The notes beneath the pieces are model-generated. The model was not told the origin of the DNA. It ran no database searches and saw only the letters and a list, made by a program, of their open reading frames with translations. From assembly GCA_021650915.1 (NCBI GenBank), contig CP091279.1, positions 840,001 to 872,000 on the forward strand: DNA of 32,000 nt, read 5' to 3'. Positions 1,885-25,797 of the stretch are shown one piece after another (the stretch's first letter is position 1; each line of letters begins with the position of its first letter). Both the position numbers and the translations under genes were made by a program. Origin of the DNA: Candidatus Brocadia sp. Lineage in GTDB: Bacteria > Planctomycetota > Brocadiia > Brocadiales > Brocadiaceae.

Positions 1885-1912
1885 TTGCAATTTGAAAGAT
1901 GAGCTATATAAT
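1885..1912 (+). promoter_or_regulatory. candidate sigma70-type promoter (TTGCAA-16 nt-TATAAT)
   Basis: TTGCAA at 1885-1890 and TATAAT at 1907-1912, in AT-rich intergenic DNA about 150 nt upstream of tRNA-Ala. This could be a chance match. Confidence 0.25.
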
Positions 1913-2068
1913 ATGAAACAAATTTATCAAATATTGCTAAGAGTAAAAAATCAATGGATTTATAGTGCTCCCTTACTAAACAGCTTGAAATCATAAATCG
2001 TATATTTGCCCTCTAGAATTTTCTGTTAATTTTGTGTCCTTACTGGCAAACGATACTCATGACTTTAT

Positions 2069-2145
<77 letters not shown>

Positions 2146-2258
2146 CACACCCGTGTCAATTATAATACCCTCATCAAACGGTCTCTGCAAGGTCTCTGAA
2201 AATACGGTAAATTATGTGTTTGTTTCGTTCTAACTCTTAAATAACGATTCTTTTAGCA

Positions 2259-2960: not shown

Positions 2961-3027
2961 CGCGGCGATCAAGTCTCCCATGGGAAAGAGGATCAACGGG
3001 GTCTGTAAGGAAACTCGTTAGGAAGGT

Positions 3028-3215
3028 ATGAAATACTTTCCCGTAAGAAAACTCAATTTCAATTTGCTGGAAAAACGCCTGAATGCAAACCCCATCACCT
3101 ACCAAAGAATTATTATTGGTCCCAGGATTGACGAAAATGCAGCCGTCATCGATTTTGGGAAAAAGCATCTTGTGGCTAAGACCAACCCCGTCACTTTTAC
3201 AACACAAGGGATTAT
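3028..3215 (+). pseudogene. AIR-synthase-related (ThiL/HypE/SelD superfamily) N-terminal remnant
   Basis: The ORF begins ...IIIGPRIDENAAVIDFGKKHLVAKTNPVTFTT, resembling the GxGEDAAVxD...LVxxTDPxTF N-domain pattern with degraded catalytic residues. Similarity stops near 3215, where IS-derived sequence starts. Confidence 0.4.
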
Positions 3216-3235
3216 AATCCATACCGGCACAGCAG

Positions 3236-3838
3236 ATATTATCTTATGCAGATTTGCGAAAGTATGGACATAGGAAAAGCATTTGAAAATACCTCCGTTG
3301 TCGCGCACCTCAGGCTGCTATCCGTTACGATAAATTTCACGTTATAAGACACCTGAATGATGCCTTAGGCAAAACGAGAAAGAACGAATATGCCAGACTC
3401 AGTGGCAAAGATCGTAAGTTCATTAAAGGTCAGAAATACACTCTTCTGTCTCATCGTGAGAACCTTACGATAGGCGGGAGATGGGCATCAAAAACGCTTC
3501 TGACTGCTAGCAAACGGCTGAATACAGCATACGTCCTCGAAAAAACATTCGGACAGTTATGGAGCTATACGTCAGAGGTCCGGACCAGAAAGTTTTTTGG
3601 TAACTGGAAAATCTCGTTAAAATGGCAACGGCTTAGGCCCTATGAGAAGTTTGCAGAACTGGTCGAACGCCACGGGGATGGCATCGCCGCCTTCTGCAAA
3701 CCAAAAAATAAGGTTTCGCTCAGATTTGTCGAAGGGATCAACAACAAAATCAGAGTCATTCAACGCCGAGCTTATGGCCTACGAGACGAAGAGTATCTTC
3801 GTCTCAAAATATTGACCTGCATATTGCCTGATATCTAA
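3236..3838 (+). pseudogene. ISL3 family transposase, C-terminal fragment with internal frameshift
   Basis: Absent from the ORF track because it has no Met. One frame reads ...ICESMDIGKAFENTSVVAH. After a frameshift near 3290-3310 it continues APQAAIRYDKFHVIRHLNDALGKTRKNEY...EGINNKIRVIQRRAYGLRDEEYLRLKILTCILPDI* with the stop at 3836-3838. The DKFHV and GINNKI..IQRRAYG motifs are typical of ISL3. Confidence 0.75.
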
Positions 3839-3887
3839 TTCAGTACAAAAATGACTCATTTTTACCCACTCAATAGGAAAAAGACCC
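3236..3887 (+). mobile_element. ISL3-family IS remnant (3' third only)
   Basis: Contains the C-terminal transposase fragment below. A plausible right terminal repeat ends ...GGAAAAAGACCC at 3887 (ISL3 ends resemble GGCTCTTTTT). The 5' two thirds of the element are absent, and the left boundary is approximate. Confidence 0.7.
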
Positions 3888-3931
3888 ATAAATCTTATCA
3901 TCCAAAAACTATGTAAAACAACAAACTTGTT

Positions 3932-4417
3932 TTACACAAATCTGTGCATTACATACACGTCTATCAAGCCGAGTTTCCTGTGGTTAAATGCCTTTGGCAC
4001 GGTACCGACTATCTTAAATCCAAGTTTTAGCCATAGCTGTATAGCAACCAGATTAGTACTCACCACAAAATTAAATTGTATTGCAGAAAAACCAAGCTTC
4101 CTTGCCTGTTTTATGGAATGGCTGCCCATAGCCTTGCCGATACCTTGTCCCCAAGTTTCAGGATGTACCATATAAGCCGCGTTTGCAACATGGGCGCCCA
4201 GATCAGGCTGATTCTTCCTCAGAATATAGGTACCGCGAATTCTATTCTGTAATTCCGCAACATAGGTATGTACAGGAGGCGACATCCACAGGCTTCTGCA
4301 ATTTTCCTTGCTTGACTTTGGATCAAAGGTGAAGGTATCTCCCCTCTTTACTACTTGATGGAAAATATTCCATACATCTTCAGAATCCGTATCCTTTGCC
4401 TTCCTTATCTTAATCAT
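3932..4417 (-). CDS. GNAT family N-acetyltransferase
   Basis: 161-aa ORF with a motif-A-like WGQGIGKAMGSHSIKQARKLGF and a C-terminal LKLGFKIVGT. It overlaps the upstream kinase gene by 8 nt. Confidence 0.85.
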   Translation of the reverse strand: MIKIRKAKDTDSEDVWNIFHQVVKRGDTFTFDPKSSKENCRSLWMSPPVHTYVAELQNRIRGTYILRKNQPDLGAHVANAAYMVHPETWGQGIGKAMGSHSIKQARKLGFSAIQFNFVVSTNLVAIQLWLKLGFKIVGTVPKAFNHRKLGLIDVYVMHRFV

Positions 4418-6032
4418 CGTTCTTGCGAGGTTTTATTGGTAACGTAAAAGTGAAGGTGCTCCCTTTCCCATATTCACTTTCTACCCATATTTTCCCCCCT
4501 TGTAATTCCACCAGATGTTTTGTGAGAATTAAACCAAGTCCAGTTCCTTCGTAACGGCGTGAATATGTGCCGTCTAATTGAAGAAATGGTTTAAATAATT
4601 TGTCAATGTCTTCAGATTTGATACCAATTCCCGTGTCGCCTACCCCAATTTGAACATATTGCTCCACCAGTTCTGCGTTGATAGTAATCCGACCCTTTTC
4701 TGATGTAAACTTAACAGCATTGGATAAGAGATTAAACATGATTTGCTTAAATTTTACTTTATCAACAATTATGGGGGGAATGCCAGGGTGGAACTGTGTG
4801 TGTATGCTGATGCCTTTCTTGCTGGAGAATTCGGAAATCGCATTCAATACCTCATCAATAACCTCTTTCAATGAAAACTCTTCATACGTGAGCTCAAATT
4901 TCCCAGCCTCAATTTTTGAGAAGTCAAGGATGTTATTAATCATGCCGAGCAGGTGTTGTCCGCTGCTACGGATATCATCTAAACATTCTTTTTGTTCTTT
5001 AAGGAGCGGGCCGATAACTTCATCCCTTAAGACTTCTGAAAAACCGATGATCGCATTCAATGGAGTGCGTAGCTCGTGTGACATGGTCGCTAAAAATTCC
5101 GATTTCAGTCTGTTGGCCTTTTCAAGTGCAATGTTTGCCTGGCGAAGCTGTTTTGTTCTTTCTTCCACTTTTTTTTCGAGATTCAAATACAAACTTTCCA
5201 AATGCCTGGATTGTTCAATCGCTGTTTTTTTGTATACATCCAACAAATTTGTTTGAGTAGCTATCAACGACCTGAGCCTTTCCTCCTCTTTAATCTCGAT
5301 TTTATCGCTAACAAAGATCTTTTCTGTTACAAAAGGCAACACCGCCATTCTTACACTTAAGGCAATGTTTTTGAACATATTTGCTGTCTCGCGAGGAATT
5401 TTCGCTTTAGAAAACATAATCAGTGAGAATAAATTTCCCGTAGGCAATATGCTTCCGAGTCCTAAAACAGATTCGATTTCGTAAGGGACTACGAATTTAT
5501 CCTGAGCGGGAATAGAGGGGCTTCCAAGGGCATTGGGTACGTGGAACACGTTGAATAGCTTGCTCCCCAACTCTCTAATAAATTCTGGGGTAGGATCGAG
5601 AATATCCCTGATATCTATTCCTAATTGGTAAATCATTTGAGAAATCATGGGGATTTGTTCCACGGCACCTTCACTCACCAAAGGAATAACCCTGTGTTCT
5701 TTGGAAAGTTTTATCGAATTCCACTCCGGTCGTATTCCTACCGTAGCTAATTGAATCAAACACTTCATCCCTTGCCGGACAGGCTGCCCGTCTAATATTT
5801 CGTTGGCCAATCGACGTAATTCCGGGTCAAGCCTCGGGTAAGGATACGTCATAAAAAAACGAACCAGGGCACAAGATTTTTCACCGGTTTGTTTCTCAGT
5901 AAGATTGTCATAAAAATAACAAACCATCAAATTGGCCAATTCTTCCAGGTTTCTTGCCTTGAGGCCAAACTCCTGCAAGGCGTCTCCGCAACGGGTCATG
6001 TCTTCTAAAGTAAATTTTGTTAAATCATACAT
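4410..6032 (-). CDS. sensor histidine kinase (cytoplasmic, uncharacterised N-terminal sensor region)
   Basis: 540-aa ORF with the H-box SHELRTPLNAIIGFSE, an N box (NLLSNAVKFT), and G boxes (DTGIGI, GTGLGL). No obvious transmembrane helices are present and no response regulator lies adjacent. Confidence 0.9.
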   Translation of the reverse strand: MYDLTKFTLEDMTRCGDALQEFGLKARNLEELANLMVCYFYDNLTEKQTGEKSCALVRFFMTYPYPRLDPELRRLANEILDGQPVRQGMKCLIQLATVGIRPEWNSIKLSKEHRVIPLVSEGAVEQIPMISQMIYQLGIDIRDILDPTPEFIRELGSKLFNVFHVPNALGSPSIPAQDKFVVPYEIESVLGLGSILPTGNLFSLIMFSKAKIPRETANMFKNIALSVRMAVLPFVTEKIFVSDKIEIKEEERLRSLIATQTNLLDVYKKTAIEQSRHLESLYLNLEKKVEERTKQLRQANIALEKANRLKSEFLATMSHELRTPLNAIIGFSEVLRDEVIGPLLKEQKECLDDIRSSGQHLLGMINNILDFSKIEAGKFELTYEEFSLKEVIDEVLNAISEFSSKKGISIHTQFHPGIPPIIVDKVKFKQIMFNLLSNAVKFTSEKGRITINAELVEQYVQIGVGDTGIGIKSEDIDKLFKPFLQLDGTYSRRYEGTGLGLILTKHLVELQGGKIWVESEYGKGSTFTFTLPIKPRKNDD

Positions 6033-6164
6033 TGTTTTGTAAATTTACCCTATTTGTGAAAGGGAACGAAGGCCCTTTTTTTCCGATTGTAAACAGAAAA
6101 AAATTATAGAAGATCGTGTCGCACCTGTACCTTTCATGCACGTGTTCATAACACTTATCCAAAA

Positions 6165-7145
6165 CTAGGTAAGCGCTTCAGGATTTACACAATTCGGGGG
6201 TTTCTGTCTGTTTAGCACGGCAATGATATTTTCTGCGGCCATGAGAGACATTTTCGTTCTGGTTTCCACCGTGGCACTGCCCAGATGTGGTGCGAGGACG
6301 ACGTTGTCCAGTTCTGCAAGTCCTGGCTTTAATTTCGGTTCCTCCTCATAGACGTCAAGCCCTGCCCCTGCAATCTGCCTATTCCGTAAAGCTTGTACCA
6401 AGGCATCTTCATCGATTACGGCGCCCCGTCCGGTATTTATAAGATACGCCGTTCTTTTCATCGTTGAGAATTCCTGTGAACCTATCAAGTGTCTGGTTTT
6501 CTCAGAAAGCGGGGTATGGATAGAAATAAAATCCGACTCTTTGAGTAATGTTTCTAAATCTACCCTTTTAGCGCCAAGCATCTCTTCCAAGACAGTATTT
6601 CTCCTGCTTTGCGTGGTATAAAGAACCTTCATACACCATCCCCGCGATCGCATTGCCATGGCCGTTCCAATCCTGCCTGCGCCAATAATACCCAGGGTCT
6701 TTCCCACGAGGTCACCTCCAAGCAGCATCATGGGCGCCCAACCGGTAAATTGACCTGCACGGGTAAGCTTATCTCCCTCCACAATCCTCCGGGTTACGGA
6801 AAAAAGCAACGCCCAGGCCATATCGGCGGTGCTGTCCGCCAATACACCGGGTGTATTCGTTACAACGATGCCCCTGACAGTGGCAGCCTTGACATCAATA
6901 TTGTCGTATCCCACGGCATAATTGGCCACAATTTTCAGATTTGTTGCCTCTTGCATCAAGCGTGCATCGACCCTGTTTGAAAGCATCGTGATGATCGCAT
7001 CCCTGCCCCTTACCTCCTTCAGCATCTCGTCATAGGTCAGTGGCCGGTCGTGCGGATTTACTTCCACCTTTTGACAAGCCTTTTTGAGAACATTCACGCC
7101 CTCGTCAGGAATCTGTCTCGTGATATATACATTCAATGGCATCAT
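6165..7145 (-). CDS. D-isomer-specific 2-hydroxyacid dehydrogenase (glyoxylate/hydroxypyruvate reductase-like)
   Basis: 326-aa ORF with the NAD-binding GIIGAGRIGTAMA motif, the catalytic-region pattern NTGRGAVIDE and APHLGSAT. Confidence 0.9.
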   Translation of the reverse strand: MMPLNVYITRQIPDEGVNVLKKACQKVEVNPHDRPLTYDEMLKEVRGRDAIITMLSNRVDARLMQEATNLKIVANYAVGYDNIDVKAATVRGIVVTNTPGVLADSTADMAWALLFSVTRRIVEGDKLTRAGQFTGWAPMMLLGGDLVGKTLGIIGAGRIGTAMAMRSRGWCMKVLYTTQSRRNTVLEEMLGAKRVDLETLLKESDFISIHTPLSEKTRHLIGSQEFSTMKRTAYLINTGRGAVIDEDALVQALRNRQIAGAGLDVYEEEPKLKPGLAELDNVVLAPHLGSATVETRTKMSLMAAENIIAVLNRQKPPNCVNPEALT

Positions 7146-7183
7146 TATTTCCCTTTTCGATCTATAGTATTACTCCATAAAAA

Positions 7184-7275
7184 CTTCTTTTTTCTGTAAT
7201 GTTTTCTTTGTGATCTTTGTATAAAACTTTGCGTTCTTTGTGGTTGAACTTTTTTGGTTGCGACTGTGCTGCGTT
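7184..7275 (-). repeat. dispersed ~70-90 bp repeat, copy 1 (inverted relative to copy at 26121-26190)
   Basis: The reverse complement reads ...CGCAGCACAGTCGCAACCAAAAAAGTTCAACCACAAAGA...AAAGAAAACATTACAGAAAAAAGAAG. It aligns with 26121-26190 apart from one ~25-nt indel and a few mismatches. Confidence 0.7.
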
Positions 7276-7356
7276 ATAATATTACTGTGTAAAAGCTTTT
7301 TTTTTGTAAGTTTTTTCACAAACCCCTTTCAGGAGGTACCGTTTTTTATGAGTGAA

Positions 7357-7449
7357 AGATTGCTTCGCTTCGCTCGCAATGACAACGTGCAGTGTATCAT
7401 CAAAGTGCATGGTCGCTGTCATTGCGAGGGGCCTTTTCCGAAGCAATCT
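7357..7449. repeat. long imperfect palindrome (REP/MITE-like hairpin)
   Basis: The left arm AGATTGCTTCGCTTCGCTCGCAATGACAACG (7357-7387) pairs with the right arm CGCTGTCATTGCGAGGGGCCTTTTCCGAAGCAATCT (7414-7449). It generates the spurious RFARNDN...CHCEG...KQSP reading frame of ORF 7240..7590. Confidence 0.75.
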
Positions 7450-7497
7450 CCCCGCTTTCACAACGGAGAATTGGTTGCGGCCTTGCTGCGCTATGCA

Positions 7498-8118
7498 TTA
7501 TTTACAATACTCCCGGTACAAAAGCATATAATTCACAATAATTTTCTTTGCCTCCGGACGGAGGTCCTGTCTGAGATCAGAATTCATTAAGACACTTTCC
7601 GTGATCTTCCAGGCCTCACACCAATCCTGTTCAAAGGCCATCTGCGCCTTTGCCAGGGCCAAGATCATGGATACCGTAAAACTGTCTTGCACTGCCTTGT
7701 ACGCCTCTTCAAGCAAGATTATTGCATTTTCAGGATGAAAATAGTCGTCCATTGCTATAAGATAGCCGAGGCAAAATATTTCATCGGCGCTGAGAAAATC
7801 GGTGTTCAGCTCGGTAACCGACATATGATATAATAATCCCAGATAGTATGTATACAGCTCTGCATTATTCTTTCCTTCAAATCTCCACGAAAGGGCATTG
7901 ATTACCGCGGCCTTCACGTCGAGAGGATTTTCTGGAGACGAAAGAAATTCTGCAATTTCTACCCCCATTACGCCTTCCAGATGCGCCCGCTGAACCATTT
8001 TGACATCCAGATACGCCTTGTGAAAATCGGTGGCGGTAATCGGCGAATCGGCATGGCCTACTCCGGGAAAAACAAATAGTACTTTTAAGATAAGGGCAAC
8101 TATCAATACTTTTTTCAT
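7498..8118 (-). CDS. exported hypothetical protein
   Basis: This is ORF 7498..8148. The likely start is the internal MKKVLIVALILKVLFVFPGVGHADS signal peptide at 8118. I recognise no family. Confidence 0.55.
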   Translation of the reverse strand: MKKVLIVALILKVLFVFPGVGHADSPITATDFHKAYLDVKMVQRAHLEGVMGVEIAEFLSSPENPLDVKAAVINALSWRFEGKNNAELYTYYLGLLYHMSVTELNTDFLSADEIFCLGYLIAMDDYFHPENAIILLEEAYKAVQDSFTVSMILALAKAQMAFEQDWCEAWKITESVLMNSDLRQDLRPEAKKIIVNYMLLYREYCK

Positions 8119-8396
8119 ATTCAATTTTTCCTCACAATCAAGTGGCAAAGTGTCAACGGCTAGTGCAATCTTGCTAATTGAACCAGATATCTTTCCTAAG
8201 AACGAAAATCTTACCTTGGAAAAGGGTTAAAGATCACGCAAACCGCTTTAGTCCAATCGCAAATGATTGGATCAGCGAGGCACAAGTCACTTGACCCCTC
8301 CCTTTTGGGGAACTTAAGAGCGGCTAAACTGCGCCAGAGAATAAACCTTGTATTGTCATCATTGTAAATGCCTCGCTAACATATTACAATATATTT

Positions 8397-9104
8397 ATGT
8401 CAAACTTCAAAACCTTATTCGGTGTCGAACCTTCCTCAATCCAGGATATCTGCGTTGTAGTTCCCTTTCTTATGTCCGGATTGCTCAGGATACTGGGAGT
8501 AGATTCGTTAAAAAAGGGGAAACTCTTTTCTGCGGCAAACACCGGTGGATTTACCTTTATTAAGGCAGGCATTGGCACCTTGTTTGTCGGCGACGCCGTT
8601 TTGTACCTTGAAGAAACGGCTTGTCAGGCGATGATTTATTTTGGCGCCTGCGGACTGGTACAGGAAACCGACCGGTTGATGATCGGAAGCCTCGTTAGTC
8701 CCCAGGAGTGCATAGCGCTCGAAGGCTTTACGGACGTTGTCTTAAAATATACGGAAAAAATTACCGCCCACTATCCAGACCAGGAATTGCTTCAGTCTTT
8801 TTTGAGCACTGTGCCAAATCTGAATATTCAGCCCGTCAGGGGGATGAGTATGGGTTCCTTGAAGTGTGAGGAATCCTACAAAGAATTTTTTAATAAAAAA
8901 GGTGTTGATGTGGTAGACATGGAATGCTCTGCCTTTTTTAGCGCATCACGTCATATCCAAAAGAAGTCGATGGCCCTTTTGTATGTGACCGATATCATCG
9001 GTAAAACATCCTTTTTTGAGCCATGGAGGCCGAAGGACAAATCGCGTATTGACCATGCGATTCAGACCGCCAGTACTGCGATACAATTATTTTGCAGGCG
9101 GTGA
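8397..9104 (+). CDS. nucleoside phosphorylase family (PNP_UDP_1) protein, possibly a futalosine/MTA-type nucleosidase
   Basis: 235-aa ORF with C-terminal VDMECSAFFSASRHIQKKSMALLYVTDII, matching the DMEsaa...SD pattern of the family. The specific function is not determinable. Confidence 0.55.
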   Translation: MSNFKTLFGVEPSSIQDICVVVPFLMSGLLRILGVDSLKKGKLFSAANTGGFTFIKAGIGTLFVGDAVLYLEETACQAMIYFGACGLVQETDRLMIGSLVSPQECIALEGFTDVVLKYTEKITAHYPDQELLQSFLSTVPNLNIQPVRGMSMGSLKCEESYKEFFNKKGVDVVDMECSAFFSASRHIQKKSMALLYVTDIIGKTSFFEPWRPKDKSRIDHAIQTASTAIQLFCRR

Positions 9105-9303
9105 GGTTGCATGACATTGGATAGCATCGTTATCCAACGTTGTTAATAGTTTCACGCATTCACCAGTTGACACTTTGATTTGGCAAGTCTGTCCAATATT
9201 CAGTTCTAAGTGTGTCACGATGCCAACTTACCGTCTTTCACAGATGCAGTCCACACAGTTTCAAGGCAATTTCTCAGTCTATTGCGTCAGTGCGTTTTTA
9301 GTG

Positions 9304-9379
9304 TTCGAACGCTGATGCTCACCTGCAGCCGAAAGCGGGCGCGAAGCACTTGCCTGACGCTGGAGGCGGTCAGTTATAA
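9304..9379 (-). other. possible degenerate attC-like site (site D)
   Basis: TTCGAAC-G...CACCTGCAGC...GCTGGAGGCGG...GTTATAA lies about 100 bp downstream of the GNAT stop. The stem is imperfect and both core boxes deviate from RYYYAAC/GTTRRRY. Confidence 0.25.
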
Positions 9380-9478
9380 CGTTCTGTCAGGTGCTTTCCC
9401 CAATATTTCCTCTCCGCAGAATCCATTATCCGGCATGTCTTCGGACTTTCCGGCTTTGTGCTTCCAAGCGGCTCAGAC

Positions 9479-10351
9479 TTAGTAAAGGATCGAGGGCAGG
9501 AATGCGCCTGTGGGCTCATTATAGAGACCGATGCTCATGAGCGTCATCGGCTGGATTACGCGTAATCCATGGTCCAAACACCAACGGAACAGTTCCCCGT
9601 TGCGGGTAGGCAGGAGGAAACCGAGACCTGGGAACACAGGTGCCGCCCCGATGAGGGCTTTCAGCGCTTCGTTCGTCTCACCGACGGCATGGCCAAAGAA
9701 CGCAATCGGCGTGGCATACCCGGTGATACGCCCCCCGTGTTCGACAATGGTCGCAATGCCCTGCGTGACCGCATCGAGCAGTTCGCCACAACGGTCATGG
9801 CCGTGAACCTGCGCGCAGACCCGATTGCAGGTGTCCATATCGCGCTCGGTGGCTGGGCGTACGGTGTATCCGGGAATCTGCACGGCGAGGGGCGCTCCCT
9901 GCATGATGGAAAGCGGCTCGCGGGCTGTAAACCCTAGTTTCGCATACAGTGAGAGCGAACGGTTATGAAACGCCCCTTGCACCAACCGGACCCCTGGAAA
10001 GCGCCTCTGTGTCACCCGATTAAGGACGTGCTGCATCAGTTGACGGCCGACTGAACGGTTTTGCGCGGCAGGATCAACCGTAATCGGCCCGATGCCCGCT
10101 ACGACAGAACGTTCGTCAAGAAAGTTGCTGCCAACGATCTGACCGTCAAGCTCGGCAACCACCGCATGGAAACCGGGATGCGCAAGTAGCCCCGCCAGGA
10201 ATTCAGTGGCAACTTCGGGTGAGGCAAAGTCCGGCGGGAAATTGTGCAGCTCGGCTATCGTCTTGAAGGCTTCGTAACAGATCGCGCCACAACGCGTGGA
10301 GTCTTTAGCATTGCCCGGTCGTAGCGTGACGTTCATTGGCACTTTCTCCAT
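9479..10351 (-). CDS. GNAT family N-acetyltransferase (two-lobed, ~290 aa)
   Basis: Motif A reads QNRSVGRQLMQHVLNRVTQRRFPGVRLVQGAFHNRSLSLYAKLGF. The DNA is GC-rich relative to its surroundings. An alternative start is MNVTLRPG at 10336, behind a GGAG. Confidence 0.8.
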   Translation of the reverse strand: MEKVPMNVTLRPGNAKDSTRCGAICYEAFKTIAELHNFPPDFASPEVATEFLAGLLAHPGFHAVVAELDGQIVGSNFLDERSVVAGIGPITVDPAAQNRSVGRQLMQHVLNRVTQRRFPGVRLVQGAFHNRSLSLYAKLGFTAREPLSIMQGAPLAVQIPGYTVRPATERDMDTCNRVCAQVHGHDRCGELLDAVTQGIATIVEHGGRITGYATPIAFFGHAVGETNEALKALIGAAPVFPGLGFLLPTRNGELFRWCLDHGLRVIQPMTLMSIGLYNEPTGAFLPSILY

Positions 10352-10387
10352 CTATCGCTCATTTGGTTGGCCCCTTGTTGTTGTAAC

Positions 10388-10445
10388 ATCTAACGGTTGA
10401 ATTCAGCGGCGGCATTACGACATCTGCTGGAATGATGTGTTAGGT
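10388..10445 (-). other. attC-like recombination site (site A)
   Basis: The + strand reads ATCTAAC GGTTGA ATTCAGC [18-nt loop] GCTGGAAT GATGT GTTAGGT. The core boxes fit RYYYAAC/GTTRRRY, the spacers are 6 and 5 nt and unpaired, and there is one bulged G on the right arm. Confidence 0.6.
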
Positions 10446-10526
10446 CTTTTCTATTTATGCTACCCGACAGACTTATACCCATCAAGTTAGAACTTTTCCT
10501 ATTACCCTCCGCATAAAATACTAAAC

Positions 10527-10732
10527 CTATAGATTTTTTATAAACTCTTCAATATCGATCTCCGCATCTTTTAGAGCGCCTTTCAGAGTATACCTATCAA
10601 CTTCATCATGAAAGGGAAAAACTATCTTCCTGCCATCTGGATGTTTCATCTTTACATGACTGCCTTTTCTCTAAATCCCATCCGTTTTAGTGCTGTCCAA
10701 ACCTCTCGTCCTGATAATAGAGGGAGTTTCAT
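10527..10732 (-). pseudogene. hicA: HicA-family toxin, frameshifted
   Basis: The ATG at 10732 overlaps the hicB stop (ATGA). The first frame gives MKLPLLSGREVWTALKRMGFREKAVM* with its stop at 10654-10652. A shifted frame starting at 10664 continues GSHVKMKHPDGRKIVFPFHDEVDRYTLKGALKDAEIDIEEFIKNL* with its stop at 10529-10527. The shift sits in the A-run GAAAAGG. Confidence 0.75.
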
Positions 10733-10929
10733 AACGCCACTTCATAAACCTTATGCTTACTATCTTCTATTAACACCTCATCAGGTTCTAAATATAACCC
10801 TATTGCTTCCTTAATATTCATTAATGCCTCTTCTTCTGTCTTCCCCTGACTCCAACAGCTTTTTAACGATGGACAACGAGCTACAAGGTAACCATCTTCT
10901 CCTTCCTCTACTATAACTTTTATTTTCAT
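10729..10929 (-). CDS. hicB: HicB-family antitoxin (UPF0150)
   Basis: 66-aa ORF reading KVIVEEGEDGYLVARCPSLKSCWSQGKTEEEALMNIKEAIGLYLE, the typical HicB N-domain pattern. An AAGGAG ribosome-binding site lies upstream. Confidence 0.85.
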   Translation of the reverse strand: MKIKVIVEEGEDGYLVARCPSLKSCWSQGKTEEEALMNIKEAIGLYLEPDEVLIEDSKHKVYEVAL

Positions 10930-11019
10930 CTCCTTTATCCTTTTTTGAGTTTTTATTAAGCTATTATTTTTCTGGATACCTCTGCTTTATCTAAATCAGC
11001 CATGTATATAATCAATTTA

Positions 11020-11078
11020 ACCTAACGCGCACCTTCACGCGCGGCTGGCACGCCGTCGCGTGCAAGATGATGTTGGGC
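11020..11078 (-). other. attC-like recombination site (site B)
   Basis: The + strand reads ACCTAAC GCGCAC CTTCACGCGCGGC TGGCAC GCCGTCGCGTGCAAG ATGAT GTTGGGC. It forms a 13-bp stem with two bulged bases (T11056, C11063), both on the right arm. The last 14 codons of the P-loop ORF run into the site. Confidence 0.6.
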
Positions 11079-11532
11079 AGTTGAGTCCGAGAATTCGATC
11101 AACCACATCCTTCACGGGCACGGTTGTCTTGATCTCATGAGTGTATCGTTCTCGGAGCAGAGGTTCAATCTGCTCCAGGTCTGTCAGGATTCGCGCCATC
11201 TCCGCAGGAGTCTGGCCAAAGGCGTTGTTTGAGCGAGAACGGATGCGCTCCGTCATGATGTCACGTGGTGCACTCAACAGGATTATCGATCCGAACCGGT
11301 CGTATAGGTCGGCTTGCTCCTCGGCGCACCCAGACACGAACAGCCTATTCGTTCCGGCTTCTGTCATGGCTTGCTCAAGGCAATCCATATTCCAGTGCAG
11401 ATGCCCCTCTGCATCCATGGACGACCATCCGGGCTCGTCCATGTCGATACACTGGAATCCCCGGCACCACAACTCACCAACAACGGACGTCTTGCCAACA
11501 CCGGATATCCCGGTGATGAGAGTGGGCTTCAC
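11035..11532 (-). CDS. P-loop NTPase (small nucleoside/shikimate-kinase-like AAA protein)
   Basis: 165-aa ORF with the Walker A motif GISGVGKTS. Its size and layout resemble AAA_33/adenylate-kinase-like proteins. The C-terminal tail is encoded by the attC-like site. Confidence 0.7.
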   Translation of the reverse strand: MKPTLITGISGVGKTSVVGELWCRGFQCIDMDEPGWSSMDAEGHLHWNMDCLEQAMTEAGTNRLFVSGCAEEQADLYDRFGSIILLSAPRDIMTERIRSRSNNAFGQTPAEMARILTDLEQIEPLLRERYTHEIKTTVPVKDVVDRILGLNCPTSSCTRRRASRA

Positions 11533-11547
11533 GGTCGCTTCCTTTGT

Positions 11548-12015
11548 TCAACGCCCGAAATCAGCGTCCGCTGGACTGAGTTCTTCTGTTTCAAGCCTGT
11601 TTGAGTTACCGATGATGTACGGCTGAAGTGAGACCATAAGTTCTTTGGACGGCCTCGTCGCACTGTATAGCCCCCTCGTAAGCCAAGACGCGGTATTAAG
11701 CCAACCCGTCGTGCGCCCGACCAGACTAACCAAGGTGTCGTGTGGCACCAGGCACCAACCACCAGGCACTGGAAAGACGATGTACAGACCCTTGCCACAA
11801 TATTGCTTCGCAACCGTGATGCGGCCCTTGAGCTGCACCCTGAGGGTGTCGTTGCCGTCCTTGTGGTAGGCCAGAAAGTCGGCGCCGCGCCAGTCATCTG
11901 CAAGCTTGATGCAATTGAACCCGTAGTCGGCTAACGAGGCAGCAACTTTCTGGAAGTTGTAGGTCTCCTGCTGCTTCGCGGATAGTTGGCTGTAGGTAAT
12001 GCGATCAAACTTCAT
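11548..12015 (-). CDS. hypothetical protein (possible PD-(D/E)xK nuclease fold)
   Basis: 155-aa ORF located 15 bp upstream of the P-loop gene. The spacing in ...LADDWRGADFLAYH...LRVQLKGR is compatible with a D...(E/Q)xK nuclease core. This is inference only. Confidence 0.55.
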   Translation of the reverse strand: MKFDRITYSQLSAKQQETYNFQKVAASLADYGFNCIKLADDWRGADFLAYHKDGNDTLRVQLKGRITVAKQYCGKGLYIVFPVPGGWCLVPHDTLVSLVGRTTGWLNTASWLTRGLYSATRPSKELMVSLQPYIIGNSNRLETEELSPADADFGR

Positions 12016-12166
12016 CTTATTAATCGTCTCATAATAATATTAACATGCTGCAGCATACCTCGTTGTTTTATTATTGAAATAAGCACGCACTCTATCCTGT
12101 GTTTTTTGGATAAACCGCAAATGCTTTATTACTGCCCTCTGTAATTGCTTTGGATCGGTAATAATT

Positions 12167-13567
12167 TAGTAGCGTTGTCAAGTGGAGACCTGAGAAAAGT
12201 CCTCCAATGTATAGTTGTCACGCATCAAAGCCGTTGTAGTAATAGGCAAGCCGAATTTTGGTAACGTTCAGCGCCCCGGCAACACTCCATTTGCTCACAT
12301 TCACCCGCAGGTTAACCGTACGCATGACGCGCTCTACTTTACTTGTCGTTCTGCCATTGAGCCTCTTTTCTATCGCCGTAAACATATCAGGCCTGGCATT
12401 CTCAAGATAAGACGCGGTATGAGCATATCCCTTCGACAAACAATGCTGAATCACCGCATCCAATCGTTTCCTCTTGGACTCTATCATTTTCTCGATGGTC
12501 TTCTGACAATCAACCAATGGCCGTATCGCACAGACCTCCATAAGCTCCGACATCACCTCCAGCCATTCTTTCCCCTTGCTCTTGACCCCATCTTGCCACA
12601 ATACATACTTTGCCTGATACGGAATATGCCACAAACATCTCTGTACAAGCACCTTGATCTTACCTTTCAAACTATCCAAAATAGAGGTGTCTCCATCGGT
12701 TATCAAAAGAAACCGGGAAAACTTCCTGAACACCTTAACACTCTTACCAAAAAGCTTATCCCAACTACCGTTGTAATCCCCTATGTCAAGCCCTGCCACT
12801 CTCACCCCTCCACCGCTCTTGTATTGCACAAAGACCTTGAGTTCCTTGCCTCGTTTGGCTATCCCCTTAATCCCTACCCCTGTCCCGTCTGCTTTTCCCA
12901 GGGAAGTCCCTTCTCGTCGAGTTGAAAATCTATCTCTGCTGCCGTCTTTTGTACCGATTTCCCTATCGTCATCTTGTCTACGGTCCAGCCAAACATCGAC
13001 ACGATCTTCTTCGCTACCCGGTAGGTCGTTAACGACCCTACCAGACCAAGCTTCCGATACGTCTCTGGTGGTATTCGCTTCATCCGCTCCATCCCGAGAA
13101 GCTTTCGCGTTATATACATCTTAGGACCACACCCCTTGCACTGCACCTCTTGCACTGCACCTGCAACTGCTCTAATCTCAACCACTGAAAGACCGTCAGT
13201 ATCTTCGTCTCTTTTCCATGCCTCGTCTTCCAGATAAACTCCTTGTCATTCCCACATTCGTCGCAGCAAAATGGCTTCCGTGATTGCGCCATCGCACTCT
13301 CACCAAAACCAACCACGATCTTCCGAATAAAATCCCTTAATATCTCCGGCAGTATCTTGCAAAATGCCTTGAGAATCGACTCCAGGCTGCCGTCCTTTAA
13401 TTCAACCCGAATTTGACAACCAAATTCTACTGTGATACTCTCTGTGCATAGGGTTGCTCCCATATAGCCCTCCTTTTCTTTATGGTTTAGTTTCTTGTAT
13501 CAAAACTATTTTTTACCATATTTGGAGGGCTTTTTCTTTAACCAAGTCTCTCTTTTTCTACTCTACC
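12167..13567 (-). mobile_element. IS element B (about 1.4 kb), nested in IS630 copy 1
   Basis: It interrupts the IS630 sequence GGTAATAATTTGTCGACC exactly. A 7-8 bp target duplication, AATAATT(T), occurs at 12160-12166 and 13568-13574. The 3' third recurs at 16670-17118. Confidence 0.85.
12218..13463 (-). pseudogene. IS element B transposase (DDE type, family uncertain: IS256/ISLre2/ISKra4-like layout), two frameshifts
   Basis: Three consecutive ORF pieces: 13463-13110, 13185-12874 and 12829-12218. Zinc-ribbon-like CxxC pairs sit at the N-terminus, followed by ITDGDTSILD...QRCLWHIP...RTTSKVERVMRTVNLR...WS..GA. The first break coincides with a 14-bp tandem duplication and the second lies near 12830-12875. 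Confidence 0.8.
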
Positions 13568-14538
13568 AATAATTTGTCGACCAATTGCATTATTCTTAAC
13601 ATCATTCCAAACGCACTCATCAGGATTCAACTCCGGTGAATACGGCGGCAAAAAGAATAACCGAAAGCGTTCCTTTATGGATTCAATAAACTTGGTAACA
13701 CTACGCGCCTTGTGTGCCGGATGGCCATCAACAATCAAAAAGACCGTACGACTGCTACCATGAATCAGTCGCTTGATAAACTTGATAAACTGCCGCGCTC
13801 CGACACACCCTTTCACCACCATAAAGCGAAACTCGCCTTGCGCACTCACCGCCGAGATCATGTTCAGCCCAAAACGTGCACCGGTACTACTCACAATAGG
13901 AGTCTTCCCTTTCACTCCCCAGGTAGTACCTGCATGATGATCTGATCGAACTCCTGCTTCATCACCAAAAAATATCTGTGCCTTCATCTCCTGTGCCATC
14001 TTTTTGATCCTGGGATACTCCTCATTCAACCACTGTTGGACTTTTTCAGGCCTTTGTTGGTAAGCACGCCATAGAGGACGTTGCGGTGTTAGTCCCATTC
14101 GGGCTAACAGACGGCATACGGATGCCTTGCTCAGTTTTACACCAAAACGCTTATAGATCAACTCCCCTATCATTTTTGATGTCCACAACGCAAAGGTAAA
14201 TTTCAGCTGGAGAGGGTTTTTATCGACTATCGTCTTGTATATCCATTGCAGTGCCTTGGCATTAAGCCTGGGTTGGCGTCCTCCCCGTTTACGGGCATCC
14301 AAGGCTCCCCATCCACCACGGTTATACCGCGCCAACCAACCGTACATGGTTACACGGTTTATACCTATGGCTTTTGCCACTATCTCGGGACTTTGTCCTT
14401 CTTGCACACTATTTACCGCACGCTTTCTCAACTCGGTAAGCGTTTTGTGATCTAACCGTCTGGCATCACTCTTTTTCATAAATACATGATACCATATTGG
14501 CATTACTATGTCAATACTATTATGAGAAGGTTAATAAA

Positions 14539-14605
14539 ACATAACGCCAAAACTCAGCGGCAGTGGGCGCAGTTTCCCGTCGTCCGCTGCAGTACTTTGT
14601 TAGGC
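14539..14605 (-). other. attC-like recombination site (site C)
   Basis: The + strand reads ACATAAC GCCAAA ACTCAGCGG...CCGCTGCAGT ACTTT GTTAGGC, with bulged C14590 and T14583 on the right arm. The HepT stop codon (14602-14600) lies inside the GCCTAAC box. IS630 copy 1 is inserted 3 bp from the other box. Confidence 0.6.
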
Positions 14606-14869
14606 ATTCAACACCTCATGTATTTCTCTAATTAAAATAGGTAAATGATTCTCAACAGCCTTCCCGATAATCATTTCATCAATGATATCATAGCCATGTA
14701 TTAGGATGTGTCTGAAATCTATGATACGGTAATGCTCGGAAATTCTTTCAGGCAATTCATCATCAATTCTTTTAATCCTGTTAAGGGCTTCCCCGATAAT
14801 CTCAAAATCTCTTTCAACTGCTCTTTGTGTGACGACGCTATTTTGATATTCCTTACAGCTACAATCTTT
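14600..14869 (-). pseudogene. HepT/DUF86 (HEPN) toxin, N-terminally truncated
   Basis: Absent from the ORF track because it has no start codon. It reads ...KEYQNSVVTQRAVERDFEIIGEALNRIKRIDDELPERISEHYRIIDFRHILIHGYDIIDEMIIGKAVENHLPILIREIHEVLNA*, with the Rx4HxY HEPN motif as RHILIHGY. About 30 N-terminal codons and the expected upstream MNT antitoxin gene are missing. Confidence 0.75.
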
Positions 14870-15020
14870 GTAACACTTTAGTTTTTTGAAAAATTACCAT
14901 AATAACGATGTTGCCGCACGGTGTAGGGACGAAGCATCTGCCATAAATTGGCATAAATGTATTCACACCCCAAGCTGGCAAATGCTTCGCCCCTACTTTT
15001 TCAAAAAACTAAAGTGTTAC
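14870..15020. repeat. nested palindromic element (MITE-like)
   Basis: The outer inverted repeat is a perfect 24 bp, GTAACACTTTAGTTTTTTGAAAAA (14870-14893 versus 14997-15020). The inner repeat is ~20 bp, GTAGGGACGAAGCATCTGCC (14923-14942) versus GGCAAATGCTTCGCCCCTAC (14977-14996), with 18 of 20 positions complementary. Confidence 0.85.
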
Positions 15021-15076: not shown

Positions 15077-16624
15077 ATGGAGAAGTTTCTGGAGAGATAT
15101 GATAGCAAAATCAGTGGGGTAATATCAACCTTTGATCGGATGATATTCAAGGGGCATATCCTGTCGTTTTTTCAAAAAGGCAACAGGCATCATTATTTAT
15201 TTCAGGAGAAGGTGTTGTTTAAGGATTTTGGTAAGTAAGCGAAGAAAGTGTCAGGTGAAATTAAGGATAAAGCGAGAGAGTTGTCGGACAAAGAGGGACG
15301 TCCGTTAATACCGCTGGATTCAAGCAGAATCAGCAAGGAGGACATTGCGCGGAAAGTACAAAAAGAAGAGGGAATAAAAGAAGGGCTTATTTGTGTCATA
15401 ACGATGGTAGAGCGGTGTGTATCGTTTGATACCCGGGGTAATAGAGAGACAGGGAAATGAGAGGTGGTAATTCGGGAGCGCCGATGTTTGTTTCTGTATT
15501 TTTATTACCAACACAAGGAGTTTGGTTTCATGCAAGTACGGATTCAGACGTGGTTTCCCTTTCAGATACAAATTTATATCAACGGACGTGAATGGTTGTG
15601 TAAACGGCTGGATAGGAAGGGCATTGGTTATCAGAGACACGACAATAGTATTATTCAGGTTGATGATGTAAAGGTGGCGCAGGAGATAGCGGAACGGTTT
15701 GTTGATGTCGGTTTTGTGAAGGCATTTGACGCGCTTTGCCGGCAGATAAATCCCGTTTTACCCCGGATAAAAAAGGTATTTTCTAAGGGATATTATTGGG
15801 TGCTGGATCAAGGGGAGTATGCAACCGATGTAATGTTCAAAGATCGGCAAAGTTTGCGAGAAATCTATCCGGAACTGGTAGAGCATGCCTTAGTGAACTT
15901 CAATGCCTCAGACGTGATGACCTTTTTGGGGAGAAAACTCACGGGTAATTTTCGAGGCGAGATTATAACGGATACGAAGAAAAGACCGCAAGGGGTTCGC
16001 ATCAAGCACCGCATGAAGAAGAATTCCCTGAAGATGTATGACACGTGGAGTGTGTTACGGGTGGAAACAACCATGAATAACCCGCGTGAGTTTAAGATAT
16101 ACCGTGAGGTAGAGCGTTGTGGTGAAAAAGTGATGAGATGGGTGCCTATGGGTAAGAGTGTGTTTCATCTTTACCGTTATGCTGAGGTATCGAAAAGCGC
16201 CAATGGGCGATATTTGGGTGCATTGTCAGCAGTTGTACCCCTGCACGATTGTGTAAAAGAACTGGAGCAACTTGCTCAACCTGTCCGTGATGGACAGAAC
16301 CGTCATTCCGGATTTAATCCATTATCCCCTGAAATAACCAGAGTATTTGAAGCCGTTTTAGACGGCGCTCATAGTATAAATGGTTTTAGAAATAAAGATT
16401 TGAGGAGCCAATTGTTTGGTGATAATACCAGGTCGCCGGAAGAGAAGAAAAAGACGGGCTCAAAAATAACGAGGATAATAAGAAAGCTCAGGGCTCACGG
16501 GCTTATATCGAAAATACCCCGTTCGACGAGGTATAAAGTTACTGAAAAAGGATATCGTATTTTGGGCGCATCTCTTGAAATGAAAAAGAAGCATCTCCCT
16601 ACAACAATGAAATATGTTGCTTAA
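15077..16624 (+). pseudogene. 515-codon ORF of unrecognised family, interrupted by two in-frame stop codons
   Basis: The ATG at 15077 follows a GAGGAGG ribosome-binding site. A single frame runs to 16624 with TAA at 15236-15238 and TGA at 15458-15460 and no frameshift. The ORF-track pieces 15248..15460 and 15464..16624 share this frame. The conserved-looking core reads GFMQVRIQTWFPFQIQIYINGREWL. Confidence 0.7.
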
Positions 16625-16669
16625 AAAAACTTACAAAAAAAAGAAGTTTTTACTGGGTAATACTATAGT

Positions 16670-17118
16670 AGGCAAAGTATGTATTGTGGCAAGATGGGGT
16701 CAAGAGCAAGGGGAAAGAATGGTTGCAGGTGATGTCTGAGCTTATGGAGGTCTGTGCGATACGGCCATTGGTTGATTGTCAGAAGACCATCGAGAAAATG
16801 ATAGAGTCCAAGAGGAAACGATTGGATGCGGTGATTCAGTATTGTTTGTCGAAGGGATATGCTCACACCGTTTCCTATCTTGAGAATGCCAGGCCTGATA
16901 TGTTTACGGCGATAGAAAAGAGGCTCAATGACAGAACGACAAGTAAAGTAGAGCGCATCATGCGTACGGTTAACCTGCGGGTGAATGTGAGCAAATGGAG
17001 TGTTACTGGGGCGCTGAACGTTACCAAAATTCGGCTTGCCTATTACTACAACGGCTTTGATGCGTGACAACTATACATTGGAGGACTTTTCTCAGGTCTC
17101 CACTTGACAACGCTACTA
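16670..17118 (+). mobile_element. partial copy of IS element B (3' terminal ~450 bp)
   Basis: Near-identical to the reverse complement of 12167-12615. ORF 16684..17067 matches the C-terminus of ORF 12218..12829 with a few substitutions. It shares the terminal ...TTGACAACGCTACTA. Confidence 0.85.
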
Positions 17119-18499: not shown

Positions 18500-20348
18500 G
18501 TGTCTGAACGAAAACGCACTTTTTGTAAAAGTGCGAGGTCGATTTTCTATTTACCAATAGATAATTTTAAGATTTGAGATTAGGGTTTTTGGCAAAAATA
18601 CTGTTCTTTTACATATTTCCCTTGTTTTCCCCTTTATTTTAGCCTTGTCTGGGCGTACCTGCCTCCCGGCAGACTGTTTTTCTTCGTGTTTTTTGCTTGC
18701 TTAGGCGGCTTTTCGCAACTTTTCGCACTGCTTCCGTGCCTTCTCCTGCAGCACGTTTCCCAGCTTGTGCAAATTCGCAGCTAACACGCCCATTGCACAA
18801 TATCTTTTAAAGGCATGCAGCCCTTTGTCCGGACACCTATCCAAGCCGTGATGCTCCAAACGATTGATATCCGATTCTACCGCCGAGTGCTTGTGCCTTA
18901 GCTTCTTAAATGTCTTACCCGATTCCTCTTCCTGTTCCGCCTTATTCTTCTTGCCCTTCTTGGGAAGGATTACCTCTGGTATATACAAACTCAGCAACTC
19001 TTTATTCTCTTTCTTGTAAAAACCTTTATCAAAACTTATACTCTTTATTGTGCCTTCTCCGTAACGGCTCAACAACCTATCTGCCAATGGAATTACCAAC
19101 GATACATCCGCCTGTTTTTCTCCTACCACATGGTCCACGATGAAACCCCACTGATCGCTTGCTACCAGAATATTATGTCCCAACTCTACCCTTTTGTTTG
19201 ACTTGCCTTTGTACAGCCACTCCGTATGCGGCTCAAACAACGAATGAACCTTTTCTGCCGCCGGTATTACCTCATCCCGGATCACCCTTCTCTCCACCAG
19301 GTCTATCTGTTTATTCAACATCCCGTGAAAATACTCCAGTGTCCCTATTTTCCCTGCATGCTTGTCTACCTGGTTCGTCGTTAGCACCTTTTCGTAGATG
19401 GCTAACAGACTCGCTCCTATCTTTTCACTCAAACCCCTCGATAATTCCAAGTAACTCCTCACATGCTCTTCCTTGTTTTTCCCCCCGCTGCTTGACGCCT
19501 TTGCGCTTATCCTCATCAGCTTTTTTAACTCTCTCCTCCAATATTTGCTCTTGCGCCATCCTTTCCCCGCCAGGATGCCTTCCTCTATTGCATCCTCTAT
19601 CATGTCCAGACTCTTGCGTCCCGCATCCCACAATAAATTCATATCGGTCGGAAAGTGTACATTCGTCTCTAACACATACGTATCCACCTTAATACACAGT
19701 CCTTCGTCCTTTTTTTTAACCAACTGATGCCCCGATGATATCACCACTTCATTTATCTGCCTGAGGGTCTCCTCATCCAACAATCTTATATTGTCCTTGA
19801 TGCTCTGCATCGAAAAAACCTTCGCCTCTCCAAATGCCGTCTCAACCCCCATTATCTGCCTGATAAGTTTGTGATGGTTGGCAAAATCCTCCAACCTGTC
19901 ATAATCGGCATCTAACCCTAATCTTACCACCGACAACACCAAAATATGCCATAAATCCATCCCATATCTTCCCGTCTTTTTCTTCCCCTTCGTTACCTTC
20001 GCCTCTAATATCCGGAATACCTCCTCGTTCAACTCCGGTGTAACATAGATATGTTGCAACGCCCTCAGTATCGGTGGTAGCTCATCTCGACTCTTTATTG
20101 GCAGTTTTACCCCTGAAATGGGTATGATGCCAAGCTTCAATTGCTGCTCAAATCTCTTTCTCATCTTCTATCGAATGTCCTTTGGCTAGTGGGTTAATGA
20201 ACCGAATATTTGGACTCTTTATACCCAGAATCCCTTCATTTTCGCCATATTTTACCCTTTTACCCGAAAAAATTCAATGACTTTCATGAACATTTTTCAC
20301 CAGCTTCTCCTTACTTTACAGGGCTCTGGGGGGTTTCCGTTCAAACAC
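18500..20348 (-). mobile_element. IS element C (1849 bp), nested in IS630 copy 2
   Basis: The terminal inverted repeats are GTGTCTGAACGAAAACG and GTGTTTGAACGGAAACC (reverse complement). A 6-bp target duplication, TAGGTA, occurs at 18494-18499 and 20349-20354. Confidence 0.85.
18701..20164 (-). CDS. transposase of IS element C (IS5/ISNCY-like, family uncertain), apparently intact
   Basis: Uninterrupted 487-aa ORF. The N-terminus reads MRKRFEQQLKLGIIPI...KSRDELPPILRALQHIY...GRYGMDLWHILVL and the C-terminus reads HSAVESDINRLEHHGLDRCPDKGL...ANLHKLG. As I recall, proteins with this pattern are annotated as ISNCY-family transposases. Confidence 0.8.
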   Translation of the reverse strand: MRKRFEQQLKLGIIPISGVKLPIKSRDELPPILRALQHIYVTPELNEEVFRILEAKVTKGKKKTGRYGMDLWHILVLSVVRLGLDADYDRLEDFANHHKLIRQIMGVETAFGEAKVFSMQSIKDNIRLLDEETLRQINEVVISSGHQLVKKKDEGLCIKVDTYVLETNVHFPTDMNLLWDAGRKSLDMIEDAIEEGILAGKGWRKSKYWRRELKKLMRISAKASSSGGKNKEEHVRSYLELSRGLSEKIGASLLAIYEKVLTTNQVDKHAGKIGTLEYFHGMLNKQIDLVERRVIRDEVIPAAEKVHSLFEPHTEWLYKGKSNKRVELGHNILVASDQWGFIVDHVVGEKQADVSLVIPLADRLLSRYGEGTIKSISFDKGFYKKENKELLSLYIPEVILPKKGKKNKAEQEEESGKTFKKLRHKHSAVESDINRLEHHGLDRCPDKGLHAFKRYCAMGVLAANLHKLGNVLQEKARKQCEKLRKAA

Positions 20349-20627
20349 TAGGTATAAACCGTGTAACCATGTACGGTTGGTTGGCGCGGTATAACCGTGG
20401 TGGATGGGGAGCCTTGGATGCCCGTAAACGGGGAGGACGCCAACCCAGGCTTAATGCCAAGGCACTGCAATGGATATACAAGACGATAGTCGATAAAAAC
20501 CCTCTCCAGCTGAAATTTACCTTTGCGTTGTGGACATCAAAAATGATAGGGGAGTTGATCTATAAGCGTTTTGGTGTAAAACTGAGCAAGGCATCCGTAT
20601 GCCGTCTGTTAGCCCGAATGGGACTAA

Positions 20628-25653: not shown

Positions 25654-25797
25654 ACAATACTGCTAACTATTTTAGTTAACTCTTATAATATTTCAATGAA
25701 TTATAGACACCTTAACATATAAGGGTGGGCAGTGCCCACCATTTTCCTCTGAAGCCTGCGGCTTCCTTCAATTTTTGCAAATAAAAAAGCCTTACTG

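Follow-up and report, generated by a model that had tools for sequence, protein, structure and literature searches.

A probable integron cassette array without a nearby integrase in the chromosome of Candidatus Brocadia

What kind of locus is a run of open reading frames (ORFs), all on one strand and punctuated by similar imperfect palindromes, in the chromosome of an anammox bacterium? The case at hand comes from Candidatus Brocadia sp. (Planctomycetota; GenBank assembly GCA_021650915.1, contig CP091279.1, positions 840,001 to 872,000). This stretch of 32,000 nucleotides (nt) is called the window below, and all coordinates are counted from its first letter. An initial annotation, made from the letters alone, took the palindromes for attC sites and the ORFs for integron cassettes. 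The analysis reported here leads to the same answer: positions 9304-14869 are very probably the surviving part of an integron cassette array that has no integrase nearby, known as a cluster of attC sites lacking an integron integrase (CALIN). The array comprises four minus-strand cassettes in head-to-tail order, each with its own attC: a hepT fragment; ORF155 together with a P-loop gene; hicB-hicA; and a GNAT gene.

Three palindromes with one architecture

The argument starts from three sites. Scores are those of R1, a covariance model introduced below.

10388-10445, minus strand (bottom strand, plus): attC S1, of the hicBA cassette; 53.7 bits, E 1.4e-12; matches the pattern; L stem with one bulged G
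11020-11078, minus strand: attC S2, of the ORF155/P-loop cassette; 46.3 bits, E 1.4e-10; minimum-free-energy fold pairs R and L boxes
14539-14605, minus strand: attC S3, of the (mntA-)hepT cassette; 47.4 bits, E 7e-11; HepT stop codon TAA inside the R'' box GCCTAAC

All three share one layout on the plus strand: RYYYAAC-G, 6 nt, an 8-nt arm, a loop of 14-23 nt, an arm with extra bases, 6 nt, and GTTRRRY. With extrahelical bases in brackets, they read:

S1: ATCTAAC-G-GTTGAA-TTCAGCGG...[T]CTGCTG[G]AA-TGATGT-GTTAGGT
S2: ACCTAAC-G-CGCACC-TTCACGCG...[T]CGCGTG[C]AA-GATGAT-GTTGGGC
S3: ACATAAC-G-CCAAAA-CTCAGCGG...[T]CCGCTG[C]AG-TACTTT-GTTAGGC

The 3' arm is built identically each time: a T, six paired bases, one unpaired G or C, and two paired bases. 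Thus the common architecture described in the initial annotation is present where it was placed. Its rendering of the core boxes as RYYYAAC/GTTRRRY holds in general, but ACATAAC of S3 departs from it at one position. Read on the top strand, the R''/R' boxes are ACCTAAC/GTTAGAT (S1), GCCCAAC/GTTAGGT (S2), and GCCTAAC/GTTATGT (S3, with the same single deviation in R'). S1-S3 therefore carry the inverted R''/R' core sites of an attC, along with its L''/L' stem, here 8 bp long, and unpaired spacers of 6 nt on both sides.

Folding of the plus strand with DNA parameters bears out the bulges. The minimum-free-energy structure of S2 pairs both the R boxes and the L boxes and leaves T and C bulged on the 3' arm; in the centroids of S1 and S3, the L stem forms with a single bulge, again on that arm. 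A pattern abstracted from S1-S3 matches the window three times, always on the plus strand, and never in 100 shuffles. The placement of the HepT stop codon within a core box also proved correct.

The same sites in other genomes

Does this architecture belong to integrons elsewhere? The pattern was scanned against one genome per species (596 Gb, in 8-kb tiles), a search for which about one chance match was estimated from information content. It matches at least 120 tiles in other genomes. The hosts among the matches listed include Burkholderiales, Rhodocyclales, Nitrosomonas, Xanthomonas, Halomonas, and Nitrospira, as well as Acidobacteriota, Chloroflexi, Planctomycetota, and Ca. Brocadia sapporoensis. 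One match falls on the cmlA cassette, at its attC, in a class 1 integron of Enterobacter; the IntI1 encoded there and the query are 100% identical.

Among these listed matches, tblastn with IntI1 finds an IntI homolog encoded in 20 of 120 tiles, and the four homologs checked score 387-497 bits with the TIGR02249 'integron integrase' model (cut-off 265). Geometry is consistent too. The pattern lies upstream of intI, on the intI coding strand, in 20 of the 23 relations between site and intI among the matches listed; the other three comprise one inverted-intI geometry and two relations that involve a 30%-identical recombinase. Because the pattern strand is the intI coding strand elsewhere, it is the bottom strand in the window, so that the top strand of the cassettes is the minus strand, as the initial annotation had argued from the bulges.

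Features that the pattern left free agree as well. Of 126 foreign sites, 117 have the extrahelical T before the 3' arm, as do all of S1-S3. Stems of the foreign sites covary, with 239 double-change cells where shuffles have 95, and the proportion of their stem cells that are paired is 91.8%, compared with 47% at most when the arms are slid.

These 126 foreign sites were used to build R1. Applied to the window, R1 finds S1, S3, and S2 at the scores listed above (E 1e-12 to 1e-10), and the next match has 12 bits. The aadA1 attC, absent from the training set, scores 47.8 bits. R1 also retrieves same-strand arrays of up to seven sites adjoining intI genes, and S1-S3 can be aligned column for column with the aadA1 and cmlA attC sites. 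Judged by these comparisons of sequence, S1-S3 are canonical integron attC sites.

Cassettes and their boundaries

The genes and the remaining attC of the array are as follows.

9304-9392, minus strand: terminal attC of the GNAT cassette, 89 nt, decayed; top-strand R'' ACCTGAC, R' GTTCGAA; aligns with an attC of contig L153
9479-10351, minus strand: GNAT N-acetyltransferase gene, 290 amino acids (aa); Pfam Acetyltransf_1/7/10; cassette 9310-10393, 58% GC
10527-10735, minus strand: hicA toxin gene, frameshifted pseudogene; Pfam HicA_toxin
10729-10929, minus strand: hicB-like antitoxin gene, 66 aa; Pfam HicB_lk_antitox, E 4e-5; hicBA cassette 10394-11025, 37% GC
11035-11532, minus strand: P-loop NTPase/kinase-like gene, 165 aa; Pfam AAA_18; weak NCBIfam kinase-family matches
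11548-12015, minus strand: ORF155, conserved hypothetical, 155 aa, first gene of a two-gene cassette; 1216 homologs
14600-14869, minus strand: HepT toxin gene, 3' fragment; Pfam HepT-like, profile positions 81-119 of 120 only

The GNAT cassette provides the sharpest view of a boundary. Its protein has thousands of homologs, the best of which are 75-88% identical in amino acid sequence and carry the source names Pseudomonas, Sorangium, Nitrococcus, Acidobacteriota, Verrucomicrobia, and Brocadia. Two homologs at 85-87% aa identity, on contigs L152 and L153, are themselves attC-bounded cassettes. On L152, a metagenome contig, attC sites of 45.5 and 49.2 bits flank the gene, and a 12.6-bit match (E 0.17) stands directly upstream; on L153, an attC comes after the gene, and seven more attC-bearing cassettes come after that. 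When the window is aligned with L152, L153, and B. sapporoensis, similarity sets in precisely with the GTT of the upstream R' box. Between the window and L153, it continues across the gene and the 89-nt attC, to end directly behind GTTCG of the R' box. These limits of similarity are, as the alignment reads, canonical cassette boundaries.

The L153 array itself (716-11573 of ENA ERZ25039541 contig_43524) contains at least eight attC sites, with the GNAT homolog first. Its cargo includes methyltransferases, eCIS_core-domain proteins, and a TIR-domain gene, and the stretch covered encodes no intI.

A fourth, degenerate site had been suspected at 9304-9379. The site is real and its left end stands, but homology moves its right end to 9392. 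Its ortholog is the L153 attC at 1659-1747 (ACCTAAC...GTTCGGC, 31 bits with R1). Relative to that ortholog, AAC of the R'' box has become GAC, and the L'' box has diverged. The resulting pair, ACCTGAC/GTTCGAA, does not form the inverted core sites seen in S1-S3, and R1 gives only a partial match (9352-9392, 11.4 bits). The fourth site is best read as an inactive relic. GTTATAA at 9373-9379 was considered as its box and set aside, since homology favours GTCAGGT at 9386-9392.

The other cassettes recur as well. A protein 99% identical to ORF155 is named 'Candidatus Brocadia sp.' at NCBI. On contig L154, an ORF155 homolog forms a single-gene cassette: an upstream attC of 27 bits; an ATG 6 nt past the R' box; and a stop codon, TAA, inside the next R'' box. 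The window ORF155 has the same spacing. Its ATG stands 6 nt past the GTTATGT box of S3, once an intervening IS630 element and one TA are removed, not 9 nt as first counted. The P-loop ORF downstream extends 44 nt into attC S2. ORF155 has no match in Pfam, NCBIfam, or PADLOC, and neither PADLOC nor NCBIfam suggests a function for the P-loop protein.

HepT homologs of 71-83% identity are followed directly by an attC on four contigs (L156, L159, L160, and L176). The window copy lacks its N-terminus and its mntA partner. A complete pair is found on contig L197 (WBZR01037174, 250-940), whose mntA-hepT homolog is 86.6% identical in nucleotide sequence to the window hepT fragment; its hepT is frameshifted, its attC has decayed (R'' GCTTGAC), and its sequence context differs. 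It adds a further orphan cassette, from a Brocadia-like genome. In the hicBA cassette, the HicA_toxin match is confined to a C-terminal 40-aa ORF, and the N-terminal part lies in a different frame. For GNAT, ORF155, and HepT, then, the cassette is a discrete unit of ORF plus attC with attC-bounded homologs in unrelated contigs, the independent occurrence that the initial annotation had put forward as a check.

Base composition also follows the cassettes. GC content is 58% (GNAT), 37% (hicBA), 56% (ORF155/P-loop), and 35% (HepT), against 43% in the left flank. The description of 9300-12015 as GC-rich thus holds for GNAT and ORF155/P-loop but not for hicBA, and the region is heterogeneous, cassette by cassette.

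Insertion sequences and decay

Two further elements interrupt the array or mark its end.

12017-14537, minus strand: IS630-family element; Pfam DDE_3, HTH_Tnp_IS630; inserted at a TA, with attC S3 on one side and the start of ORF155 on the other
14870-15020, unstranded: 151-bp element with perfect terminal inverted repeats of 24-27 nt; truncates hepT and marks the array break

Contig LAQJ01000141 (GCA_000987375.1) and several anammox-reactor assemblies match the flanks of the window with 100% identity, and the minus-strand ORF run lies between conserved genes of the Candidatus Brocadia chromosome. To the right, from 12 to 25.4 kb, insertion sequences (ISs) dominate the window: two IS630 copies, ISH6-family elements, two IS4-like elements, and one IS110. 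The first IS630 copy begins 2 nt beyond the R' box of S3. That an IS630 copy breaks the array was correct in that an IS cuts it, but the element is an IS630 split in turn by a nested ISH6-family IS (12168-13567, NCBIfam ISH6, with an 8-bp target duplication). On contigs L001 and L015, which carry the same locus in other assemblies, the IS630 lacks the nested element; this absence indicates that the nested insertion is recent.

Other marks of decay are the frameshifted hicA, the truncated hepT, and a terminal attC without its AAC core, in addition to the IS630 and nested ISH6 that separate S3 from the next gene. Beyond the array break at 14870 lie approximately 10 kb of IS elements.

Several neighbouring features were noted in passing. 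A second, partial ISH6-family copy occupies 16663-17070. The second IS630 copy is in two parts, 20210-20665 and 22589-23278, separated by an IS4-like element (20703-22534), which makes another nested insertion. A stretch of 47 nt related to the 151-bp element is present in B. sapporoensis (L149, 4602-4648); the element may be a miniature inverted-repeat transposable element or the end of an unclassified IS. Next to it, a run of three plus-strand ORFs of 53, 70, and 386 aa (15077-16624) resembles a single gene that has been interrupted. Neither Pfam nor NCBIfam gives a significant match for them, and their product may be the transposase of an IS not yet described. Short overlapping ORFs on both strands fill the window at about 7190-7600, where contigs of other assemblies stop (L012 at 7190, L008 at 7359), which suggests a dispersed repeat that breaks assemblies.

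Searched with Rfam at gathering thresholds, the window yields only a tRNA and a cyclic di-GMP-I (c-di-GMP-I) riboswitch, and no family reaches threshold in the cassette-array region. The riboswitch (58 bits; 25821-25959, minus strand) is followed by a same-strand IS110 transposase gene (24125-25387, minus strand). In a close relative, JAJTXD010000001 (L002), homology extends only as far as window position 25722, beyond which a surface protein of 3042 aa with Laminin_G/PKD/FG-GAP domains is encoded. The gene regulated by this riboswitch has probably been displaced through IS activity.

Where is the integrase?

No intI is visible in the window, as first reported: tblastn with eight IntI queries and domain scans revealed neither a gene nor a remnant, and the larger ORFs scanned contain no tyrosine recombinase domain. 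The adjacent TIGR02249-type intI of a complete integron is therefore lacking. The geometry seen elsewhere, with sites upstream of intI and on the same strand, places the expected intI to the right of the array, where the break lies.

One candidate remnant was examined and rejected. Four IntI queries gave weak tblastn matches at 9246-9446 (plus strand), which might have represented an intI C-terminus. The stretch holds a 90-aa ORF without a family match, and its DNA is the 3' end of the GNAT cassette plus its attC, homologous to L153.

Other Brocadia loci offer a comparison, and no intI was found in any of those examined. B. sapporoensis carries a separate cluster (L097, NZ_MJUW02000087, 845-4200) whose three attC sites share a strand and score 51, 37, and 17 bits. 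Its opposite-strand ORFs include genes for an endonuclease/ComEA-like protein and restriction-modification-like genes; it adjoins NuoE/NuoF-type genes, and no intI is present in the 8 kb covered. Yet another locus holds the GNAT homolog in B. sapporoensis and in Brocadiaceae strain B188. Both genomes retain the 5' leader of the GNAT cassette and the R' box of the preceding attC, and in B. sapporoensis a weak upstream attC (20.5 bits) is detected.

Weighing the explanations

Several observations weigh against an integron cassette array, or against parts of it. No intI, attI, or Pc was found for the array, and the eight IntI queries gave nothing better than E = 0.5 in tblastn against the 32-kb window. 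(Integron classes do not share a conserved attI site.) When the flanking PNP and 2-hydroxyacid dehydrogenase proteins were looked up, no empty site or alternative allele came to light; all contigs with an identical neighbouring PNP gene carry the same array, and the look-ups otherwise led to contigs that stop before reaching it. An ORF155 homolog on contig L155 has no nearby attC, and the hicB match falls below the Pfam gathering score. The hairpins of S1-S3 are no more stable than shuffles (z +0.2 to -1.7). Finally, R1 scores are partly circular, because the training set was found with the pattern derived from S1-S3. Three parts of the attC test are independent of this circularity: the agreement in free features; the association with intI; and the aadA1 control.

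Could the palindromes be generic repeats of the repetitive extragenic palindromic (REP) type, or intrinsic terminators that merely resemble attC sites, and the ORFs ordinary chromosomal genes? Like terminators, the hairpins come after ORF ends, and neither their folding energies nor simple core-box pairs stand out: RYYYAAC...GTTRRRY alone occurs six times in the window and 3.9 times in shuffles. Because stability and core-box counts do not exceed shuffles, the case for S1-S3 rests on their shared architecture. That architecture does not behave as a repeat family. Only three copies occur in the window, on one strand and at cassette ends, and approximately 75 kb of other Brocadia chromosome, searched with the REP possibility raised in the initial annotation in mind, contains no R1 match. 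The stems are not followed by a T-run; the motif co-occurs with integron integrases elsewhere; and cassette homology breaks exactly at the GTT crossover point. This explanation is very hard to sustain.

Within the reading as an integrase-less array, two histories were considered. The array may be the distal fragment of a formerly complete sedentary chromosomal integron, cut by IS-mediated rearrangement from an intI and attI that survive, or once survived, elsewhere in the genome; this is the second of the two options given in the initial annotation. Strand geometry predicts intI to the right, and that is the side on which hepT is cut (at 14870) beside the mass of IS630, IS4-like, IS110, and ISH6 elements. 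Against this stand the absence of any intI fragment from the 17 kb on the right and the 9 kb on the left, and two other Brocadia clusters (L097; L149-151) that lack intI in the stretches covered and have housekeeping genes called alongside. Moreover, most CALINs are not near intI pseudogenes (PMC4889954). Such a split is conceivable, and is kept here as a tentative option with less than even chances.

Or the cassettes never stood beside a resident integrase, and arrived through insertion in trans at a non-attI (attG-type) site or as a pre-built array through horizontal transfer. Relatives of the GNAT and mntA-hepT cassettes do sit at differing chromosomal loci across Brocadia genomes, each beside attC remnants; the attC type is that found in Beta- and Gammaproteobacteria; and cassette GC content is strongly unlike that of the host. 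Insertion outside att sites has been reported (PMC4889954; 10.1101/2022.09.11.507474). The proximal junction, which would show a hybrid attG/attC, was destroyed by the break at 14870, and none of the contigs looked up has an empty-site allele. This second history seems a little less probable than the first, and is likewise worth keeping in view.

Whichever history applies, the integrase-less cassette array could have formed as follows. Each cassette would once have been a circular unit of ORF plus attC. An integron integrase would have recombined the folded bottom strand of attC (here the plus strand) at G|TT of the R' box, and successive insertions would have built the array, with the integrase-proximal side to the right. 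The platform may later have been lost or separated, or may never have been resident at this locus, which would now be inert and eroding. Since S1-S3 keep all the features of functional attC sites, they could still be recombinogenic with an integrase in trans, and their cassettes could be excised or shuffled.

Comparison with known systems

In the IntegronFinder definition, a CALIN comprises two or more attC sites that share a strand, are spaced less than 4 kb apart, and have no neighbouring intI; CALINs are abundant and often lack intI remnants, and integrons in Planctomycetes are already on record (PMC4889954). In the window, three attC sites lie on the plus strand with gaps of 574 and 3460 nt, and the 32 kb encode no intI. 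The locus resembles other CALINs in having no intI nearby, heterogeneous attC sites, and cargo that is mostly unknown or accessory. Nothing essential differs; the host is an anammox planctomycete, and the cluster is interrupted by nested IS elements.

Like the sedentary chromosomal integrons of Vibrio and Xanthomonas, the array is chromosomal, its cassettes are co-oriented, and its cargo comprises toxin-antitoxin genes (hicBA, mntA-hepT) and unknowns. Unlike them, it lacks the platform of intI, attI, and Pc and has only four cassettes. Large sedentary arrays have homogeneous attC sites (PMC4889954), whereas those in Brocadia are dissimilar (58-89 nt, of two types).

The attC sites of class 1 mobile integrons (aadA1, cmlA) share with S1-S3 the layout of the boxes, the spacer lengths, and the positions of extrahelical bases. 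The cmlA attC matches the window-derived pattern exactly, and the aadA1 attC scores with R1 as S1-S3 do. In contrast to class 1 cassettes, the Brocadia array contains no resistance genes and no integrase, and it stands on a different genomic platform. As for attG-site insertion (10.1101/2022.09.11.507474), the likeness lies in integrase-less cassettes at varied loci of related genomes. It is a likeness only: the Brocadia junction that would prove an attG is lost.

Implications

An integrase-less cassette array is a kind already known. The Brocadia locus is a solid but ordinary example, and it leaves the understanding of integron mechanism unchanged. As a hotspot of IS-driven decay, it also causes assemblies to break.

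A broader idea is doubtful, although it deserves mention: Brocadia in sludge might repeatedly receive cassettes from a pool in integron-bearing Proteobacteria, and these would become fixed at non-attI loci without a resident integrase. If so, Brocadia genomes would be a natural record of cassette spread across phyla by integrase in trans or at attG-type sites, and S1-S3 would still be mobilisable.

Full-text literature searches returned no paper describing integrons in Brocadia or anammox genomes. With this locus, anammox Planctomycetota join the hosts of integron cassette clusters, and the cassettes they carry are common to several phyla, as with GNAT at 75-88% aa identity. For annotation, the GNAT, ORF155/P-loop, hicBA, and hepT genes are to be treated as imported accessory cargo rather than as core anammox functions.

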